Positions 2,198 to 64,000 of a DNA stretch of 64,000 nucleotides are shown here, one piece after another. Below the pieces are notes generated by a model. It was not told where the DNA came from and ran no database searches. It saw only the letters and a list, made by a program, of their open reading frames with translations. The stretch lies in the IMG/VR virus record IMGVR_UViG_3300020434_000055. One strand, given 5' to 3'. The DNA comes from a virus (Duplodnaviria; Caudoviricetes). The position numbers were made by a program, and so were the translations under genes. Within the stretch, counting starts at the first letter, position 1. Every line of letters begins with the position of its first letter.

Positions 2198-3044
2198 TAA
2201 AATTATTATAGGAACCCGTGGCAGTAATTTAGCTTTATCCCAAGCTCGAAGTATTCAAAAATTATTAGAAATTGATTCCGAAATAAAAATTATAAAAACA
2301 TCTGGGGACATCCATGAAAATAAAGCTATTGCTGATATAGGAGGCAAAGGTGTATTTTCAACACAAATTGAACAAGAATTATTAGATTCAAAAATAGATT
2401 TAGCTGTTCACAGTTTAAAAGACCTACCAGGCATAATGACAAAAGGTTTATGTATTAAAGGTGTTGCAAAAAGAAATGATCCCAGAGATGCATTGTTAGG
2501 AAAAATTAAAAAAGGATCTAAAATTGGTACTAGTTCTCCTAGAAGAACTGCCCAATTAAATTATATAAAAAAAGATATAGAAATACTTCCTATTAGAGGT
2601 AATATAGATACTAGAATTAAAAAACTTAAAGATGGACAATATGACGCAATAATATTAGCAATGGCTGGTTTACAAATGCTTGGTTTAGAAAACGAAGTTG
2701 ATAAAATATATGATCTTGATGAAATAAAACCTTGTGCAGGACAAGGCATCATCGCAATACAAACTAGAGACAACAATGATCCTTTAAATGATTTAATTAC
2801 CAAAATAAATGACATACCAACATTTTATCAAGCCCAAGCAGAACGTTCCTTGCTAGAAGCAATTGGAGGGGATTGTCATACTGCATTAGGATGTTATACT
2901 ATGGTATCGGCCTACCATCTTTATCTAACAAGTGAACTATATGTAAATGATAAAAAATATACTGCATCTGGTTCTGGTAATGTTATTGATGCCAAAGACC
3001 TTGGAATCAGAGTTGGTAAAGAATTGTTAGCTCAAACAGACTAA
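2181..3044 (+). CDS. hemC: Porphobilinogen deaminase (hydroxymethylbilane synthase)
   Basis: IGTRGSNLAL, GKGVFS..IE, DLAVHSLKD, GTSSPRR, IRGNIDTR, GGDC (cofactor Cys). Confidence 0.95.
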   Translation: MSPVTDKIIIGTRGSNLALSQARSIQKLLEIDSEIKIIKTSGDIHENKAIADIGGKGVFSTQIEQELLDSKIDLAVHSLKDLPGIMTKGLCIKGVAKRNDPRDALLGKIKKGSKIGTSSPRRTAQLNYIKKDIEILPIRGNIDTRIKKLKDGQYDAIILAMAGLQMLGLENEVDKIYDLDEIKPCAGQGIIAIQTRDNNDPLNDLITKINDIPTFYQAQAERSLLEAIGGDCHTALGCYTMVSAYHLYLTSELYVNDKKYTASGSGNVIDAKDLGIRVGKELLAQTD

Positions 3045-10946: not shown

Positions 10947-13142
10947 TTAATCTGTTTGAATAATAGTTATTTCTGGTTTAGTAGTATCTGTACCAATTGT
11001 TATATTTTGAGTTTCTGAATCTTGAACTATTTGAATATCTGCAGATTTATCCGTTTCAGTTTTTATATATGCAGTATGACCACCATGCGTTCTGTTTACA
11101 ACTGAATAATTTCCACTTGTAGTAGCAGTAGCATCATCTTCATTGCCACCTGTTGTAAATCTTCCTGTTGCTGTTGTACTTTCACCATCTGTTGTTGTAG
11201 TTTGAGTAAGTTCACCTGTTGTATAATTAATAATTTCACCACTAGTTGTTACTGTTGTTTCTGATCCACTATTGTCAACCCATTCTGTACCACAAGACTG
11301 AGCCGCATTATTCCAATAGTAACCCCAGTTAACACAATCTTCTTCATTATCAATTTCTGCTAACCATAATTCTAATTCTAAATCTTGATCATAATCATCT
11401 TCGTAACCATACTCTTCTTCTAATGATACTGAATCATCATCTTCTTCATACTCGCCATAGTAATACCAGGCATAAGTCCAATCATAAAATGTTTGCCAAT
11501 CGTTCCAAGTCCAATCAGCAATATACTTGTCTTTTAAACTTGGCATATCCCACGGAGCAGGTTGACCTTCACACATTTCCCATTTATAACTGCTTACCCA
11601 ACACCATCCATACCATTTGTTGAAAAGTTGTTTAGATTCTGATGTCCATGAAGTATAATTTTTAAACAACTTCCAGTCATCTGTATACCAGTCATTTAAG
11701 TAATCTATATATTCTTGATTACACCAATCACTACCATAGCCATTGTAATTACAATAATTTTCTATTGTTAAAGTTGGCGGACCTCCATTTGCTATGTAAT
11801 CTGCGTTAGCATAATATTCATCATTTAAAGCAAAATCTTCCCAAGTGTATCCTTCAACTGTAGACGTTGCTTCTTCTTCAACTTCTTCAGATTTATCTTC
11901 TACTTGATTATCATAAGCCGTTAAACCATAATCTTCTAATAGGTCGTTATATTCTTCCATATATTCGTCCCAATTAACTTCATCCCAATTAATAGAATCC
12001 CAATTAATTGTGTCCCACGTACAATCTGAACAACCTATTGCGTCAAAGTATGCTTGGTCCATTTCTGCATACATCTGTTTAGCATCATCCCAATCCATTG
12101 TTTGTTCGCCTTCAGCGTCCCATACTGATATTTGATTGTCATCATCTATATAACCCCAATCTTTTAAATCGTCTTCCCATTCATCATAGTAAGATGTGTC
12201 TATGTCTGATTCTACTACTTCGTCTACTACTATATCTTGAGTAGAACTTGTATCTATTTCACTTGATTGTGTTGTAAAATCTTCAACTACCGCCGTAGTG
12301 TCTGATGTTAGTGTATCTGATTCAATTGTTAATTCCTCTGATACAATTTGTTCTTCTATTTCATTAGCTTCTTTGGCATCCATTTCTATTTCTAAAGTTT
12401 CTTGTTCTAACAACTCATTAGATTCAAACATTTCTTTTTCATTTTCTAAAAATTCGTTATTATCTTTTCTATCAAATTGAAGGTCGTTTTTATCTTCAAT
12501 GTCGTCTTCTACACTATCTAAATCAAATAAATTCTTTTTCTGAAGATTATCTAATGGGGATGGTGCCCTAGGTACTAGGTTATCACTAAGAACTGTTACT
12601 GATGTATATACTTGAGTTATTGTTTGAGAGCCTGCATCATTAGAAACTGTAACTGCTCCTACTTGTCCAGAAGAATCAGGAAGTAATGTAATTGTAGTAA
12701 CACCGCTTGTTGATACTGATCCTGAAAATGCTGTACCTTGTACTGTAATTGATGCTGTTGGCGTTACAATTTCAACGTCTCCTCCTAACTTAGAAACTTC
12801 GCCAGACTCATAGGTAAACGTTCCTACGTTAACCGATACGTTCATTGAAATTTCTATTGGTACAACTGTTGTATCAAAAGCAAATTCATCAATTAAAAAT
12901 TCTGTATTGGGTGCAAGAGTAACTTTTGTATTATCTACGAACACAATGTTCATAGCACCATCTTCTCCAGTTTGGAGAAAGTCATGCATTTCTAAAAGAT
13001 ATCCTGAAACAACCTTATAAGTTTTTCCTGAACGTTCATTAAACGTAGAACCCATTTTATCTTTAACTTCACCTACAGTTATAGCTAAAGCATTTGTAAC
13101 AAATAGTATTAAAAATGATACCACAAAGAAGAACTTCTTCAT
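10947..13142 (-). CDS. Secreted FecR-domain protein with acidic Trp/Tyr/Cys-rich C-terminal region
   Basis: Signal peptide MKKFFFVV..NALA (ATG 13142; ORF track starts at 13151); FecR domain paralogous to 3814 gene. Confidence 0.8.
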   Translation of the reverse strand: MKKFFFVVSFLILFVTNALAITVGEVKDKMGSTFNERSGKTYKVVSGYLLEMHDFLQTGEDGAMNIVFVDNTKVTLAPNTEFLIDEFAFDTTVVPIEISMNVSVNVGTFTYESGEVSKLGGDVEIVTPTASITVQGTAFSGSVSTSGVTTITLLPDSSGQVGAVTVSNDAGSQTITQVYTSVTVLSDNLVPRAPSPLDNLQKKNLFDLDSVEDDIEDKNDLQFDRKDNNEFLENEKEMFESNELLEQETLEIEMDAKEANEIEEQIVSEELTIESDTLTSDTTAVVEDFTTQSSEIDTSSTQDIVVDEVVESDIDTSYYDEWEDDLKDWGYIDDDNQISVWDAEGEQTMDWDDAKQMYAEMDQAYFDAIGCSDCTWDTINWDSINWDEVNWDEYMEEYNDLLEDYGLTAYDNQVEDKSEEVEEEATSTVEGYTWEDFALNDEYYANADYIANGGPPTLTIENYCNYNGYGSDWCNQEYIDYLNDWYTDDWKLFKNYTSWTSESKQLFNKWYGWCWVSSYKWEMCEGQPAPWDMPSLKDKYIADWTWNDWQTFYDWTYAWYYYGEYEEDDDSVSLEEEYGYEDDYDQDLELELWLAEIDNEEDCVNWGYYWNNAAQSCGTEWVDNSGSETTVTTSGEIINYTTGELTQTTTTDGESTTATGRFTTGGNEDDATATTSGNYSVVNRTHGGHTAYIKTETDKSADIQIVQDSETQNITIGTDTTKPEITIIQTD

Positions 13143-13144
13143 GA

Positions 13145-14236
13145 TTAACACCCGTTGGATACGTTTTGAGTAAGATTGCCGGATTGATTATTTCTATTGT
13201 ACGAATATGTACAAGTATCTGAACCGTCTTGTGTAAAGTTTAATGTATAATCGTAAATTGAATCACCTGATACAGTAACGTGAGCTGTATTACTTCCACC
13301 TGTTTGAGCAAAGTTTATATTTGAATCATCTGTATAGATATAAATTCTAGCAGTATTATTTCCACCTGCCATATGTAGTCCTAATGTATTATCATCTCCA
13401 GATATGTACGTTCTCAAATAATTGCCGTCACCCAATATCGTCATAGTATCTCCATAAGGATCAGTATCAACACTAGTGTAACTAGAGTGAATATCTAAAA
13501 TATTTGAACTACCTATAATATCGTGAAGTTGATAATTGCCCGTACCATACGATGAAGTGTGTAATCTATTTGAATTACCAACTATATAAACATCAATTGA
13601 TGCACCTTCACTTCCTGATGAATCTGCAAACTGACTATGCGAAGCAGTTTGTGGACCAATTGCCTTATTAGCATTTGTATTAAATCCTTCTGAATCAGCA
13701 GTGCTATAAAACTGTACATCATTTGAATCTCCCGCCATACGAACATATAAGAAATGATCATCACCTCTACTACGAACCCAAAAAGTATTTGAATCTCCAT
13801 AGATATCTAAATCAACGTTAAGATTGTCCATATCATCGGCGCCCCAGGCGTCAAAATCTACAATGTTTAAATCACCTGTAATATCTATGTCATAATAATG
13901 ACCAGAAGAATTCGTATCATCTATATCAGGTCTCAATTTATTACCATCACCAGTTGCTGTATAATCAAAGGTCATATTAGTACCTTTAAAAGATAAGTGA
14001 TACGAATTATCAGTTACATTTGAATCACCTATTTGTTTAATAATAACAGTTAAATTGTTTCCATCAATTTTAAAAGGAGCACTAGCACTCATTCCAAACG
14101 TGTTGTTTGAACCGTCTTGTTTTATGTAAATGTCTTGACCTGTTTGGCCAATTTGTGTTATATAGACTTGATTACTTGCATAACAATTAATCGTCGTTGC
14201 TAGTAACAATATCAGACTCAATAATAATGCTTTCAT
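13145..14236 (-). CDS. Curlin-like repeat (beta-solenoid) protein
   Basis: Signal peptide MKALLL (ATG 14236, GGAGG SD at 14243-14247); many hxhxhxGxxN / QxGxxN repeats; directly after csgG. Confidence 0.7.
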   Translation of the reverse strand: MKALLLSLILLLATTINCYASNQVYITQIGQTGQDIYIKQDGSNNTFGMSASAPFKIDGNNLTVIIKQIGDSNVTDNSYHLSFKGTNMTFDYTATGDGNKLRPDIDDTNSSGHYYDIDITGDLNIVDFDAWGADDMDNLNVDLDIYGDSNTFWVRSRGDDHFLYVRMAGDSNDVQFYSTADSEGFNTNANKAIGPQTASHSQFADSSGSEGASIDVYIVGNSNRLHTSSYGTGNYQLHDIIGSSNILDIHSSYTSVDTDPYGDTMTILGDGNYLRTYISGDDNTLGLHMAGGNNTARIYIYTDDSNINFAQTGGSNTAHVTVSGDSIYDYTLNFTQDGSDTCTYSYNRNNQSGNLTQNVSNGC

Positions 14237-26608: not shown

Positions 26609-27721
26609 ATGAAGATATCGCAATTTACGACAAAAGTTACAGCAGAGCAAATGAACAAAAGGTTAGCTGAAACCTTCGGGACCAGCATTAACTTGGATAA
26701 GTTCACCTTAGAACAACTCCAAACAGCAAAAGACAAAGTAGTTGGTAAAATTTCTACCCTTCAAGCTCAAGAAAATTTCGATCAAATAAGCCATAATGAA
26801 GAGTATCAAAAACAAAGAATGTTTTTAGATGTAATAAATGCGGCAATTGAAAGCGGTATGTCAGATATCCATGTAGGTGCTCAAGAGATAGTAGGCGAAT
26901 ATACAGATGACGTGGATCATTTAGCTAAACCTAAAGCTGATGTTATAGCAGATTTAGAGCGAAGAGAAGCTGAAGCAAAAGACCCTACAGAACAATATAC
27001 ATTACGTACTGCAAAAGACATGGTAAAAGATGGCTTTGATGAACAAGGAGACGCTATTCCAGACCCTAGTGATATGGCACCCGAGAACATAAATACAGAT
27101 ACAATGAAAGCACAAGATTTAAAAACAACCGAAGCAAAAGGCAAGGACCATGACAAAGATGGCGATGTCGATTCAAAAGATTATATGAAATCAAAAGATA
27201 TAGCAATTAAAAAAGCAATGAAAAAAGAAGATATAAAAGTTAAAGAAGGCGCAGAAGAATCAGCACAATTAGTAATGGCGGCAAAAGATATGGTTGACAA
27301 AATCACAGGCTGGATGGAAGACACAGCGTCTATGCAAACAGAATCAATGCTAGAATTAAGCGATGCAATTAGAGATGAAATAGGCTCAGAACAATCAGAA
27401 ACATTTGTAAACCAAGTTAAGCCATCACTTGAATCATTATATTCAGCTTTAGAAGTTACAAGAGAATCATTAACAGGAGGCGTAGCCGTCCTGACAGGCG
27501 AACAACTTCCCGCTACAATGGGAACAGATACAGAAGAACCTGTAGTAGAGCCAACAGATGATATAGCAGATTTACCTCCAGCTGAAGATGACTTTGGAGC
27601 GAGCGAACCTGCAACTGGTGGAGATTTACCAGCAGACAGAGGCAAAAGAGAATCAATTTTAAGAATGTCAAGAAGACTAGCCGAAACACTTTCAAAGAGA
27701 CCGTCAAAAAAAAAGGCTTAA
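26609..27721 (+). CDS. Putative prohead core/scaffold-like protein; candidate -1 frameshift to 28041
   Basis: GAGGA SD, acidic/helical, DHDKDGDVDSKDY motif, ends at A9G run. Confidence 0.6.
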   Translation: MKISQFTTKVTAEQMNKRLAETFGTSINLDKFTLEQLQTAKDKVVGKISTLQAQENFDQISHNEEYQKQRMFLDVINAAIESGMSDIHVGAQEIVGEYTDDVDHLAKPKADVIADLERREAEAKDPTEQYTLRTAKDMVKDGFDEQGDAIPDPSDMAPENINTDTMKAQDLKTTEAKGKDHDKDGDVDSKDYMKSKDIAIKKAMKKEDIKVKEGAEESAQLVMAAKDMVDKITGWMEDTASMQTESMLELSDAIRDEIGSEQSETFVNQVKPSLESLYSALEVTRESLTGGVAVLTGEQLPATMGTDTEEPVVEPTDDIADLPPAEDDFGASEPATGGDLPADRGKRESILRMSRRLAETLSKRPSKKKA

Positions 27722-28041
27722 CTGAGTCCTCTGACACTCTTCTTATCCAAACATTAAGAAATTTAATTAGTAGTGCTAATTCTAAAGAGCAAACTGCTTA
27801 TCTAAATTTTGATGCCCTTAATAGAATAATGCAGAATGTTGGAGGCGGACAATATAATTTCCAAAATTTCAAACAAGCATACGATACCATTCCAGCTGTA
27901 AAAAATATAGTTAAAACTTTTAATAGAGATGGTATTGAATTAAAAACTAACGTAACCGATTCTAATCCAGATATAACAGATAAAAAGAAAAAATCCGATA
28001 TTCGCGGCATGGCTAAAAGAGCTACCTCCAAAAGAATGTAA
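27715..28041 (+). CDS. -1-frame extension of the 26609 gene (ORF track shows only 27829..28041)
   Basis: Frame open from 27592 with no ATG before 27829; joined by A_AAA_AAG at 27709-27715. Confidence 0.55.
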   Translation, partial: GLTESSDTLLIQTLRNLISSANSKEQTAYLNFDALNRIMQNVGGGQYNFQNFKQAYDTIPAVKNIVKTFNRDGIELKTNVTDSNPDITDKKKKSDIRGMAKRATSKRM

Positions 28042-28044
28042 TGA

Positions 28045-28073
28045 TTGACTTATTTTGGATTATATTATATAAT
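28045..28073 (+). promoter_or_regulatory. Sigma70-like promoter
   Basis: TTGACT-17-TATAAT. Confidence 0.8.
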
Positions 28074-28094
28074 TAGACAATGAAGGAGAATATT

Positions 28095-28202
28095 ATGGCT
28101 TGCAATAATGAAAATTGCCAATGTGAAAATTGTACTTGCGATCCTTGTTTATGTACGGAAAGCAACCAATGTTCTTGTCCTAAAGAACAAACAGATGAGT
28201 AA
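28095..28202 (+). CDS. Metallothionein-like Cys-rich peptide (35 aa, 9 Cys; not in ORF track)
   Basis: AAGGAG SD at 28083; MACNNENCQCENCTCDPCLCTESNQCSCPKEQTDE*. Confidence 0.7.
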   Translation: MACNNENCQCENCTCDPCLCTESNQCSCPKEQTDE

Positions 28203-28635
28203 TAGAACTAAAGAAGAAATTGCTAAAGACATCAAATTCGTGCTGGAAGATAAAGTAGCCCCAGCTGTTGCCCAACATAATGGATTTATAAATTATTTGG
28301 ATTTTGATATGGAATTAGGTGTGGCAAAATTAGAATTAGCAGGAAGTTGTTCAGGATGTGCTATGTCTAAACAAACACTACATCAAGGTGTGGAAGATAT
28401 GTTAAAGCATTATGTTCCAGAAGTTAACGCAATAGTAGGCGAAGATGATGAAAAAGCAGTAGAACAAGGTTATAGTCCTTTTGTACCATCAAATCAATAT
28501 CCTGAAGAAGAAACAGAAACAGAATCAGAAAGACTACAAAAACAATTAGAACCTATAGATGCTATTGACAATGTTGATGGTACTACAGAATTAGACAAAA
28601 TAGATTCTTTGACTACAGAAAATAATAAAAAATAA
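28195..28635 (+). CDS. NifU/NfuA C-terminal Fe-S scaffold domain protein
   Basis: PAVAQHNGFI..KLELAGSCSGCAMSKQTL.QGVE.ML...VPEV; likely ATG 28195 (ORF track 28108). Confidence 0.9.
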   Translation: MSNRTKEEIAKDIKFVLEDKVAPAVAQHNGFINYLDFDMELGVAKLELAGSCSGCAMSKQTLHQGVEDMLKHYVPEVNAIVGEDDEKAVEQGYSPFVPSNQYPEEETETESERLQKQLEPIDAIDNVDGTTELDKIDSLTTENNKK

Positions 28636-31095: not shown

Positions 31096-31124
31096 TTGAC
31101 AAATTATAAAATTTTGTATATAAT
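31096..31124 (+). promoter_or_regulatory. Consensus sigma70 promoter for nrdAB
   Basis: TTGACA-17-TATAAT; also TAAATA at 31146-31151. Confidence 0.85.
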
Positions 31125-34715: not shown

Positions 34716-34909
34716 TGAAAAATTTTGAAAACATGGACGGCATGGAAGTACTTTGGTATCTTTTAACTAATTGGGAAGAAGGTAGAGGACTTTGGATGAT
34801 TATTGGATTCGGCTTGACAATCTTCGCAATCAGTCTTATAATAGATTATATGGACAAAAAGAACAATACAAAAAGCGATTGGCGAATCAAGTACGATGGC
34901 GAAATATAA
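34715..34909 (+). CDS. Small membrane protein
   Basis: One TM helix; contains internal promoter. Confidence 0.55.
   Translation: MKNFENMDGMEVLWYLLTNWEEGRGLWMIIGFGLTIFAISLIIDYMDKKNNTKSDWRIKYDGEI
34814..34842 (+). promoter_or_regulatory. Consensus sigma70 promoter embedded in a CDS
   Basis: TTGACA-17-TATAAT upstream of 34896. Confidence 0.7.
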
Positions 34910-61080: not shown

Positions 61081-61437
61081 ATGGCGATATTAACACTTAC
61101 AGACTCGGCAAAGCAAAAAATTAAAGAACTTTGTACAGAAAATAGCAAATATGCTGTGAGATTAGGAATTAAAGGCGGCGGATGTGCTGGTTTTTCCTAT
61201 GATTGGGGATTTGCAAATCAAGACCAAATAGAAACAAATGATGAATTAATTCAAGTAGATGGTGGAAATCTATTAATAGATTCTGGTAGTATAATGTTTC
61301 TACTTGGTTCAGAATTAAGCTACGTAAAAGAAGTATTTGGTTCACAATTTAATATTACAAGTCCTAAAGTAAAATCGTCATGTGGTTGTGGAGAAAGTGT
61401 AACTTTTGATATGGATAAGGTAACTGTAGATGTCTAA
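61081..61437 (+). CDS. iscA: HesB/IscA Fe-S cluster assembly protein
   Basis: LTLTDSA, GIKGGGCAGFSY, F...P...SCGCGES. Confidence 0.92.
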   Translation: MAILTLTDSAKQKIKELCTENSKYAVRLGIKGGGCAGFSYDWGFANQDQIETNDELIQVDGGNLLIDSGSIMFLLGSELSYVKEVFGSQFNITSPKVKSSCGCGESVTFDMDKVTVDV

Positions 61438-64000
61438 ACAGATTATTAATATAGGTATAGAAGGTAATGACGGTACGGGTGATGCGATAAGAGACGCATT
61501 TCGTAAAGCCAATGAAAACTTCACAGAATTATATGCAGTATTTGGTCAAGGTGGTCAAATTACTTTTTCTGCATTAAGTGATACACCTGCCTCACTAGGT
61601 TCTAAAAAAATCCCAATATCTAACGATGCCGGTAACGCCATCGAAATGAGAACAATAACAGGTGGCACAGGAATAGCTGTTGACTTAACAACAAATTCCG
61701 ATGCTATTATTTTAAACAGTACAGGAACCACAGTTGATTCTGACGCTACACCAGGATTAGGCGGTCCACTTAATGGTAATACTTTTCCTATAGGAAATAT
61801 ATCCATTACTGATCAAGCAGTAATAGATTACAATACAGCCCACGGGGCAAATATATCTATAGATGATCTTGTAATTAATAAAAAATATGCAGATCAAAGA
61901 TATTTAAAAGTTTCAGGAGGTCCTAGTGGAGCATCAGGACAACTTAGAGTTAGAAATGAACCTACAGACGGTTCAGAATATACATTAACAATAACTGCTT
62001 TTAATAATGGTGACCCTACAATAACTAATCACGGATTTGACGCAGGTTCAAATGGTTTAGCTTTCATTTATAATTCTACGGCAACTGATGCAGTAAATTT
62101 AGTATCAGAGTCTATTTACTACATTAGATACATTGATGTTAATACTTTATCTCTTCACGCCAGTGTAGCAGAAGCTACAAATGATGATGACAGTACAAGA
62201 GTTAAAATTTCTGCTAGTGGTGGTTCAGGAACTCAAACACTTGCTGATAATGAATACGATAGTACGTTAACAGGTAATTGGTTAAGTTCAGAAGCTCTTC
62301 CTAGAAAAGCTATAGTTCGAAGACAAGGCGATACTATGGAAGGAATACTTAATTTATTTGACCATCCAGGAGCAATGGCTGGATTAGGAAGAACATATCC
62401 AGATGCTTACGCAAATATAGTTGCAAATAGAGAATTTTTAGCAGACGAAGTAATGGCTTGGTTTGATACTGCTTATCCAAATGCTCACAATCAACTTTTT
62501 AGTGTATCAGCCGCAACATACTCTCCTGCATCAGGAGTAATGGAATTAACTGTTGGGTCACACACTTTACAAGCTGGTACTACTATTAAGATTGACGCAA
62601 ATAGTTTAACATTTACTTGTGCTTTAGATAGTCATGCAACAAATCATACCTATCCAAGAGCAACTGGATCATCTGCACCAGGCGGATATGATCCTGTTTA
62701 CAATACAGCAATTGCAATTACTGGAGTAACAGCAACAACAATTACTGTAAATGTTGGTATATCAAGTGATACGTCAGCACATACATTTGTAAGTGCTACT
62801 TCTAATTGTATATCTACTGAACGTCATGAAAAATGTGAACGTGATACAAAATTTAATATTGATGCAATTGCACATGACGTAAAACATGGAGGTAATGCAG
62901 AAATAATTAGAGTATCAAAATATTATTGGGAAGGTGCATCATCACAACTTGCCGCTGGCGAAATAAATTATGCTATTCTAATTAATAATAAATTAAGAGA
63001 TTTTATTAATACTAATATTATACCTAATGTTGCACTTTCTACAAATCAAAATCCAGTAGTTACTACACAAACTACTACAACTAAAAATGGAGAAGCAGGA
63101 GCTGATACAAAAGTAACTTCGTTAGTTGCAACTATTAATAATATTACTGAAAACGGTTTAGATGTCATACCAACACCAACACCTGCAGTAGATGTCGGTG
63201 ATTTACAGGCGGCAACAAAAAAATATGTTGATTCAGCAGTTACACATTCAGCAACTAATTTATTTGTAAACACCAAAGGTGACGATTCAATGGAAGGGAT
63301 ACCTCAAGACAAATGGGGTAGAACTTTAGGTACTGCTTATGCTACAATAGGTGCCGCGGCGGCTAGAGCAGAAGAAATAATGAATACTACTCCTTTTGAA
63401 CCAGGTCCTTGGAGACAAGTTATTACATATAATAATGGTGCTAATGATTCTACAATAACATCTTCCGGTGTTGACAATAGTAGCGGTTATGGTGATGTAA
63501 AATTATTAATTGATGCTAATAGACAATTTATAATTGAAGAAGCAGTTGCAAGTACAGAGGCATCATATCCTACTCACGTAAATTTTGGAACTTTATGTAG
63601 AAGAGATTTAGGTTATGCTCTTGATGGATTAATTATAGATATAATAAATGGATTAAATGCTAATTACCAAGCAATTTTAGTAGGGCAAAGATTTTATAAC
63701 AGTAATAGTGGATTGTATGCAATTACTACACAAAAAGATCAAACATTACACGCAATAGGTTATGCTAAACAACTTGTAAATTATATTTTAACTAATACAT
63801 CACCAGGTAGTTTATTCCAAACAGATTATACTCAAACAATTAATAATTCTTGGACTGTAGATGCTAATGGATTAGCTTCTGCTCAAGCAAAATTTACAAT
63901 TATAGAAAATATTGTTACTAATGGTTTAAGTGTTTCTCCTGCTCTTGTTGATGGTAGTACTTGGGAAATTAAACTTGACAATGGTGGCACAGGTAACGTA
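61430..64000 (+). CDS. Large virion structural protein (baseplate/tail fibre-like), 3' truncated; not in ORF track
   Basis: MSKQIINIGIEGNDGTGDAIRDAFRKANENFTELYA (gp9/10-like N-terminus); reads through to window end. Confidence 0.8.
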   Translation, partial: MSKQIINIGIEGNDGTGDAIRDAFRKANENFTELYAVFGQGGQITFSALSDTPASLGSKKIPISNDAGNAIEMRTITGGTGIAVDLTTNSDAIILNSTGTTVDSDATPGLGGPLNGNTFPIGNISITDQAVIDYNTAHGANISIDDLVINKKYADQRYLKVSGGPSGASGQLRVRNEPTDGSEYTLTITAFNNGDPTITNHGFDAGSNGLAFIYNSTATDAVNLVSESIYYIRYIDVNTLSLHASVAEATNDDDSTRVKISASGGSGTQTLADNEYDSTLTGNWLSSEALPRKAIVRRQGDTMEGILNLFDHPGAMAGLGRTYPDAYANIVANREFLADEVMAWFDTAYPNAHNQLFSVSAATYSPASGVMELTVGSHTLQAGTTIKIDANSLTFTCALDSHATNHTYPRATGSSAPGGYDPVYNTAIAITGVTATTITVNVGISSDTSAHTFVSATSNCISTERHEKCERDTKFNIDAIAHDVKHGGNAEIIRVSKYYWEGASSQLAAGEINYAILINNKLRDFINTNIIPNVALSTNQNPVVTTQTTTTKNGEAGADTKVTSLVATINNITENGLDVIPTPTPAVDVGDLQAATKKYVDSAVTHSATNLFVNTKGDDSMEGIPQDKWGRTLGTAYATIGAAAARAEEIMNTTPFEPGPWRQVITYNNGANDSTITSSGVDNSSGYGDVKLLIDANRQFIIEEAVASTEASYPTHVNFGTLCRRDLGYALDGLIIDIINGLNANYQAILVGQRFYNSNSGLYAITTQKDQTLHAIGYAKQLVNYILTNTSPGSLFQTDYTQTINNSWTVDANGLASAQAKFTIIENIVTNGLSVSPALVDGSTWEIKLDNGGTGNV

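Follow-up and report, generated by a model that had tools for sequence, protein, structure and literature searches.

A gene of 35 codons, which encodes a peptide with nine cysteine residues, is present directly in front of an Nfu-type Fe-S carrier gene (nifU) in a 64,000-nucleotide stretch of viral DNA (IMG/VR virus record IMGVR_UViG_3300020434_000055; this whole stretch is called the window). The peptide belongs to a large family of peptides from marine phages, its sequence is under purifying selection, and relatives in one bacterial lineage are encoded together with an ArsR/SmtB-family repressor. We predict with moderate confidence that the peptide is a metallothionein-like metal-thiolate binder. 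The G+C content of the window is 32.6%, and cysteine accounts for 0.9% of the residues in its long ORFs. Because the window encodes ribonucleotide reductase, DNA ligase, exonuclease, a gp9/10-like baseplate protein and an IscA-type protein, we consider its source to be an uncultured marine myovirus-like phage.

The elements of the locus are closely packed on the + strand. A sigma-70-like promoter (28,045-28,073) matches the consensus at 11 of 12 positions and consists of a -35 box, TTGACT (28,045-28,050), a 17-nt spacer and a -10 box, TATAAT (28,068-28,073). The Shine-Dalgarno sequence AAGGAG (28,083-28,088) lies 6 nt ahead of the ATG at 28,095, and the peptide gene (28,095-28,202) comprises 35 codons and a TAA stop codon. 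Its product, P0001, is MACNNENCQCENCTCDPCLCTESNQCSCPKEQTDE, in which 9 of the 35 residues are Cys. A second in-frame ATG at 28,080 would yield a 40-aa form of the peptide. The stop codon (28,200-28,202) overlaps the nifU ATG at 28,195 by 8 nt (ATGAGTAA). The nifU gene (28,195-28,635) encodes a 146-aa protein with an acidic tail. This product has the two features of Nfu-type carriers, a NifU C-terminal domain (PF01106, E 3.9e-19; score 69 bits, cut-off 27) and a CxxC cluster-binding motif (CSGC, within GSCSGCAMS). Thus, the promoter, the AAGGAG, the 35-aa ORF with nine Cys and the overlap with the nifU start, all of which had been described in an earlier note on this DNA, are present.

The mechanical ORF list misses the peptide gene and starts nifU at the ATG at 28,108 (175 aa), as the earlier note had pointed out. 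The same false N-terminal extension of nifU is found in the public gene calls P0008 and P0009. However, P0001 has been called once in public data, so the gene is not missed everywhere. Skipped micro-genes of this type make gene callers mis-extend the neighboring gene, in this case nifU.

It should be mentioned that promoter-like sites are not in excess overall (68 found against 73 expected from shuffles); the promoter at 28,045 is one of four sites with at least 11 matches out of 12 in 16 kb. Two + strand promoters agree with the sigma-70 consensus at all 12 positions: one at 31,096-31,124, ahead of the ribonucleotide reductase gene (31,188), and one at 34,814-34,842, ahead of an ORF at 34,896. 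The promoters at 28,045, 31,096 and 34,814 suggest a set of host-polymerase promoters in the window phage. Expression of the peptide may be early, as the earlier note proposed. Just upstream of the promoter at 28,045, a 70-aa ORF (within 27,700-28,041) is conserved in relatives (cluster 44).

The 35-codon ORF is a real gene. In shuffled sequences, nine Cys within 30 stop-free codons occurred once in 40 trials, but this count is secondary: the ORF is not a chance product because it is conserved in more than 120 other IMG/VR contigs. A second Cys-rich stretch of the window, at about 11,117-11,210 on the + strand (10-11 Cys in 30 stop-free codons), was rejected as an artefact, since it lies antisense to a Thr-rich segment within a 734-aa minus-strand gene (10,947-13,151).

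The family skeleton is C-x4-CxC-x2-CxC-x2-CxC-x5-CxC and is invariant in the alignments. A word-seeded search with the 40-aa form as the query gave five homologues, all of which keep the nine Cys. A degenerate DNA pattern for CENCTCDPC matched 64 IMG/VR contigs. A pattern for the N-terminus only (MCNNExCxC), in which the center was left free, matched 104 stretches. Although this pattern excluded the central motif, nearly all of the 103 peptides in the set possess nine Cys, and their centers include ENCTCDPC, EGCTCDPC, ENCNCESC, VNCTCEPC, ENCTCGSSC and KNCTCENC. By a profile search (E 0.01 or better), the family extends to 255 protein clusters; some of them are on contigs of up to 195 kb, and one cluster is represented by 351 contigs.

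The dN/dS value is about 0.14 at a dS of about 1.2 (57 unique DNA sequences). Therefore, the peptide is under purifying selection. Each Cys position contains TGT in some sequences and TGC in others, and all four codons occur for the conserved Pro and Gly residues. Amino-acid identity within these sets is partly imposed by the search patterns, but positions outside each pattern are conserved too. Among the non-Cys residues, N, E-N, T and D-P are strongly conserved. The Cys pattern noticed in the window is conserved in the family.

Despite its occurrence in hundreds of ocean viral contigs, the family has no match in Pfam, NCBIfam or PHROGs. All 255 clusters are unnamed or called "hypothetical protein", and they carry no Pfam domain. 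The word "unannotated", which had been applied to the peptide earlier, is therefore correct in that no named family exists, but relatives have been called as hypothetical proteins in public data. In a direct scan of the isolated phages C48C1, HTVC008M, P-SSM2 and HTVC023P, the motif CxCxxCxCxxCxC was not found. Isolated phages also gave no useful match by tblastn with P0001 and P0020 as queries, but the low-complexity filter probably masks these sequences, and this result does not speak for absence. Neither a metallothionein from a phage or another virus nor the family motif came up in our literature search, and Fe-S genes and cysteine are not mentioned in two pelagiphage genome papers.

The peptide has the sequence-level features of metallothioneins. 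It is far smaller than about 10 kDa (35 aa for P0001, with a range of 20-58 aa among family members), and its Cys content (9/35, 26%; 9/28, 32%, in core members) is within the range of about 15-35% and is arranged in CxC/CxxC arrays. The peptides are very acidic, with a core that lacks bulky hydrophobic and, except for one Phe in the core of 57 unique sequences, aromatic residues; P0001 has no aromatic residue. Searches with six phage and five bacterial members gave no match to the named metallothionein profiles (Metallothio_*, PF02069 and NCBIfam) at E values up to 10, a negative result in which the composition filters of HMMER may hide weak matches. The earlier comparison with metallothioneins therefore holds for size, Cys content, CxC arrays and lack of aromatics, and it is supported by the ArsR/SmtB operons of the bacterial homologues described below, but the peptide does not fall into a named family, SmtA and MymT included. 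The only PDB sequence match of the family profile was a fish metallothionein (1M0J), which is weak and below significance (E 0.27). Likewise, the nearest named ESM Atlas cluster was Metallothio_5 at 0.83, below the level counted as reliable. An AlphaFold2 model from a 38-sequence alignment (pLDDT 73) contained no secondary structure and had no match by Foldseek (PDB) or in the wide VIA-align search. The coil-only model and the empty fold searches are compatible with a coil fold that depends on metal, but they are no proof of it.

The beta domain of vertebrate and fish metallothioneins contains nine Cys, which form an M(II)3Cys9 cluster. The phage peptide resembles this domain (1M0J) in that four CxC pairs and one single Cys are placed within about 27 residues, aromatics are absent and no regular secondary structure is predicted. 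In contrast, there is no significant sequence similarity, and the spacers of the peptide are in roughly reverse order. Furthermore, the phage peptide has no alpha domain attached to it, its acidity is far higher, and conservation of its non-Cys residues is much stronger. We therefore regard the likeness as analogy, not homology. The copper metallothionein of Neurospora crassa, one of the smallest in fungi with about 25 aa and 7 Cys, is also a stand-alone peptide of similar size with CxC repeats, but its Cys count and spacing are different and homology is not detectable. Another class of short Cys-rich peptides, the RiPP precursors of the SCIFF/ranthipeptide type, does not accommodate the family: among the annotated neighbor clusters, in which small neighbors are annotated in part, there was no maturase (for example, a radical SAM enzyme), export or peptidase partner.

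The bacterial relatives provide the best functional clue. A pattern scan with one genome per species gave 19 matches. The full nine-Cys skeleton was found in marine Verrucomicrobiota (MSEEPTKCxNPxCECENCTCDPCECTKENPCxC) and in termite-gut Oscillospiraceae (MNERTCTNPLCxCENCTCDPCLCxGETHCxC...); in candidate-phyla bacteria and Bacteroides, the sequences around the motif are Cys-rich but match more loosely and lack the complete skeleton. Alignment of the phage and bacterial sets by hhalign gave a probability of 99.1% (E 1.9e-18), although the search pattern itself accounts for part of the shared core. At all three Oscillospiraceae loci, the ATG of the peptide gene overlaps the TGA of a gene for a 108-aa ArsR/SmtB-family repressor (PF01022), which possesses the thiolate metal site ELCACD as well as a tail rich in Cys. 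This pair of genes has its own promoter (TTGACA, 17 nt, TATAAT) and terminator. In addition, P0154 is an in-frame fusion of ArsR and the peptide. The link to ArsR is thus based on a single bacterial lineage plus this one fusion. In the Verrucomicrobiota, a spermidine-synthase-like methyltransferase gene follows the peptide gene on the same strand (L123:2874-3736 and L127:4417-5278).

The smtB-smtA operon of Synechococcus is the classical metallothionein operon controlled by an ArsR/SmtB repressor. Another bacterial metallothionein operon under such a repressor is AzuR-NmtA of Anabaena (PMC8790569). By analogy, the Oscillospiraceae layout is that of the classical bacterial metallothionein operons: the peptide gene is directly behind, and overlaps, the gene for an ArsR/SmtB repressor with a thiolate site. 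In contrast to these operons, the phage copies have no regulator, and the copy in the window has only a constitutive-looking sigma-70 promoter. The peptide also differs from SmtA/BmtA (PF02069): it is not matched by that profile and possesses neither His ligands nor zinc-finger-like fold elements.

Most of the phage carriers are T4-like marine phages, which encode RegA, gp59, gp32, gp43 DNA polymerase, gp13/14 neck proteins, gp15 and terminase. To describe the contexts, neighboring ORFs were clustered and then annotated; PEP indicates the peptide gene. The order RegA-dUTPase-Hsp20-PEP-M15 peptidase-DNA polymerase was observed at about 22 loci. In other phages, an SNase-like gene directly follows PEP and IscU is encoded 0.5-1 kb downstream. 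The orders IscA-IscU-PEP, PEP-glutaredoxin-...-IscA and, as in the window, PEP-Nfu were also found. In structural modules, PEP comes after a gp9/10-like baseplate gene or before a neck gene, and it may also precede the gene for a 1781-aa protein, which is a homologue of the gp9/10-like protein of the window.

Several details of these contexts are worth recording. In L091 (270-360; also in L062, L064, L074, L081 and L095), a variant without ATG has a GTG start preceded by GGAG; the GTG overlaps the TGA of the upstream gene, and the stop codon overlaps the ATG of a T4-like neck-protein gene (TAATG). In the window itself, an IscA/HesB-type Fe-S carrier gene (61,081-61,437, + strand; PF01521, E 4.7e-17, also matched by tblastn) is not adjacent to the peptide gene and is given as context only. 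It lies directly before the gene for the gp9/10-like baseplate protein (61,430-64,000). In L059, L093 and L105, a close nine-Cys homologue sits before the gene for the homologous 1781-aa protein. L246, an IscU-bearing contig of 4.7 kb, contains a different, shorter Cys-rich ORF (MCKCDPCTCNPCDCKGTK).

The commonest direct partner of the peptide is an SNase-like gene (PF00565), which starts within about 20 nt of the peptide stop codon at about 32 of the 122 non-redundant loci. In these pairs (e.g. L058:3398-3560 and L060:720-886), the peptide stop codon is TAG in 30 of 32 cases, and the nuclease is in the same frame as the peptide at nine loci. P0128 and P0133 are single proteins in which the peptide is joined to the nuclease; because they have Gln where the others have TAG, they are true fusions. 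Read-through of TAG as a general mechanism to join the peptide and the nuclease was rejected. Relative to the peptide, the nuclease occurs in each of the three frames, and it starts at a GTG or ATG of its own with a Shine-Dalgarno sequence; therefore, the two are normally separate genes. The pairing looks like repeated gene fission and fusion. The peptide module is also found as the C-terminal tail of a SAM methyltransferase (P0169) and fused to a single-cluster ferredoxin (L115 and L126).

These fusions bring up the main rival to metal sequestration. The nine Cys may form a Zn3Cys9-type knot, which folds a tiny partner-binding domain without buffering metal; such a structural zinc-cluster module might, for example, regulate or escort the SNase-like nuclease, Nfu or a host target. 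Fusion to the nuclease, ArsR, the methyltransferase and ferredoxin, together with the frequent placement of the nuclease gene right behind the peptide gene, speaks for this possibility, and N, E-N, T and D-P are conserved beyond what most metallothioneins need. Moreover, the contexts in structural modules (neck and baseplate) and beside Hsp20, M15 peptidase and DNA polymerase, together with the nuclease fusions, are as compatible with a general structural Zn-cluster module as with a buffer of metals. However, the partner genes vary widely among the loci, and an extremely acidic peptide of only 27-35 aa leaves little surface outside the cluster. In addition, the operon layout with ArsR/SmtB that is seen in bacteria is characteristic of proteins that sequester metal in response to it. 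We therefore regard the structural module as possible but doubtful.

The earlier note had linked the peptide to Fe-S biogenesis, and genes of this type are indeed frequent neighbors. By tblastn, IscU, IscA, glutaredoxin or Nfu was found within 3 kb on the same strand at 41 of the 122 loci, and the order of the genes took at least five forms. This frequency is well above chance for one or two such genes per 150-kb genome, although auxiliary genes cluster in islands and many of the loci are related by descent. In the reverse direction, the peptide is present within 5 kb at only 7 of the 80 best IscU loci, and an obligate partnership with IscU is thereby ruled out. A general linkage to Fe-S genes does not hold for the family: most members are not beside such genes, and the SNase-like nuclease is the more usual partner.

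Does the peptide assist Fe-S assembly nevertheless? It might carry Fe or an Fe-S cluster, or shield Nfu, IscU and IscA from Cu and Zn. The overlap of its stop codon with the nifU start in the window is in line with this idea, as are the neighborhoods just described (PEP-SNase-IscU, IscA-IscU-PEP, PEP-Grx-IscA and PEP-Nfu) and the fusion to ferredoxin. Furthermore, IscU and IscA are poisoned by Zn and Cu (PMC6495748). Against it, two thirds of the peptide loci have no Fe-S gene nearby, the proportion of IscU loci with the peptide is small, and the auxiliary genes of T4-like phages form islands anyway; the nifU loci considered below are also unfavorable. As a primary role, assistance of Fe-S assembly is thus quite unlikely in our judgment. 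If the peptide is a metal-thiolate binder, protection of Fe-S assembly is plausible as a downstream benefit because Zn blocks IscU and IscA (PMC6495748), but the protective role that the earlier note assigned to the peptide is speculative.

The coupling to nifU was compared among relatives of the window. The PEP-Nfu arrangement is shared by the window and four IMG/VR contigs (L001-L003 and L044), in which NifU is 94-100% identical and the Shine-Dalgarno sequence of the peptide gene is the same. The TTGACT box and its spacing are conserved in these contigs and also in L004 and L005. In L004 and L005, NifU is 82% identical and the upstream gene and promoter are the same as in the window, but the -10 box is followed by 8 nt and then by the nifU start (ATGAGTAATAGA). 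Thus, a block of 115 nt (28,080-28,194, + strand), which is bordered by ATGA at 28,080 and ATGA at 28,195 in the window, is missing from these nearest relatives. The block supplies its own Shine-Dalgarno sequence, whereas nifU has none of its own, either with the block (window) or without it (L004 and L005). Because the nearest relatives keep the promoter before nifU without the cassette, the link between the peptide and nifU is peculiar to the lineage of the window. Judged from this sequence comparison, the coupling is a single lineage-specific cassette insertion. The overlap and the shared promoter on which the earlier note based a coupling to NifU are therefore real in the window, but they do not extend to its nearest relatives. 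Similarly, the expectation that the peptide would precede other phage nifU genes was not borne out: it was found at none of 40 other Nfu loci. Both results weigh against a dedicated helper of Fe-S assembly.

In L004 and L005 (about 2960-3003), the nifU ATG is located 8 nt past the -10 box, and the ATG at 28,080 of the window has the same position relative to the promoter. In L004 and L005, nifU is thus probably translated from an mRNA with little or no leader. In the window, translation of nifU is probably carried out by ribosomes that terminate on the peptide ORF.

This layout also recalls a regulatory leader. In mycobacteria, polycysteine leader ORFs attenuate cysteine-related operons (bioRxiv 10.1101/834739). 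The window ORF resembles them in that a short Cys-dense ORF heads the transcript of a sulfur-related gene, and here it even overlaps the start of the sulfur-cluster gene. If it acted as a cysteine-sensing leader, a shortage of Cys-tRNA would halt ribosomes on the nine Cys codons and thereby tune nifU expression, and the peptide itself would be irrelevant. In contrast to the mycobacterial leaders, however, the sequence of the phage peptide is under purifying selection (dN/dS 0.14), with the exact Cys spacing and non-Cys residues conserved, and it occurs in many unrelated contexts: before unrelated genes, at operon ends and fused to proteins. In addition, RNA folding around the ORF is not above that of shuffles (z +0.30), and the relatives express nifU without the peptide. 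A Cys-responsive leader or attenuator is thus highly improbable.

We return to the metallothionein-like reading. In the mechanism that we propose, the nine invariant Cys (four CxC pairs and one single Cys) would wrap soft metal ions in a metal-thiolate cluster, similar to the domain of animal metallothioneins in which nine Cys hold three metals. The metal may be Zn(II), Cu(I) or Cd(II), or possibly As(III). The gene behaves as a portable micro-gene, with gains and losses among marine phages. In the window phage, the 115-nt cassette would have landed between a host-type promoter and an Nfu-type gene. Because the cassette lies between the promoter and nifU, the peptide and Nfu would be made from one transcript, and translation of Nfu would probably depend on ribosomes that finish the peptide.

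A wider proposal can be put forward, which we hold only tentatively and consider rather unlikely in its full extent: marine phages and scattered bacteria may share an undescribed Zn3Cys9-like metallothionein family. In the infected cell, phages would use it to keep thiophilic metals (Zn, Cu, Cd or arsenite) in check, and would thereby safeguard metal-sensitive phage enzymes such as Nfu, IscU, IscA and a nuclease.

The link to bacterial ArsR/SmtB operons, the domain fusions and the SNase pairing are new, as are the quantified two-way association with Fe-S genes and the gain and loss of the 115-nt cassette. The ArsR-linked bacterial homologues offer an easy experimental entry. If the peptide binds metals, a buffer for trace metals is encoded by abundant marine phages themselves. 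This would be relevant to the cycling of Zn, Cu, Cd and As in seawater, where metals are scarce, and to the way in which phages maintain the activity of Fe-S and Zn enzymes while the cell is dying. Under the wider proposal above, control of trace-metal speciation by viruses would add a new class to the auxiliary metabolic functions known from the ocean.
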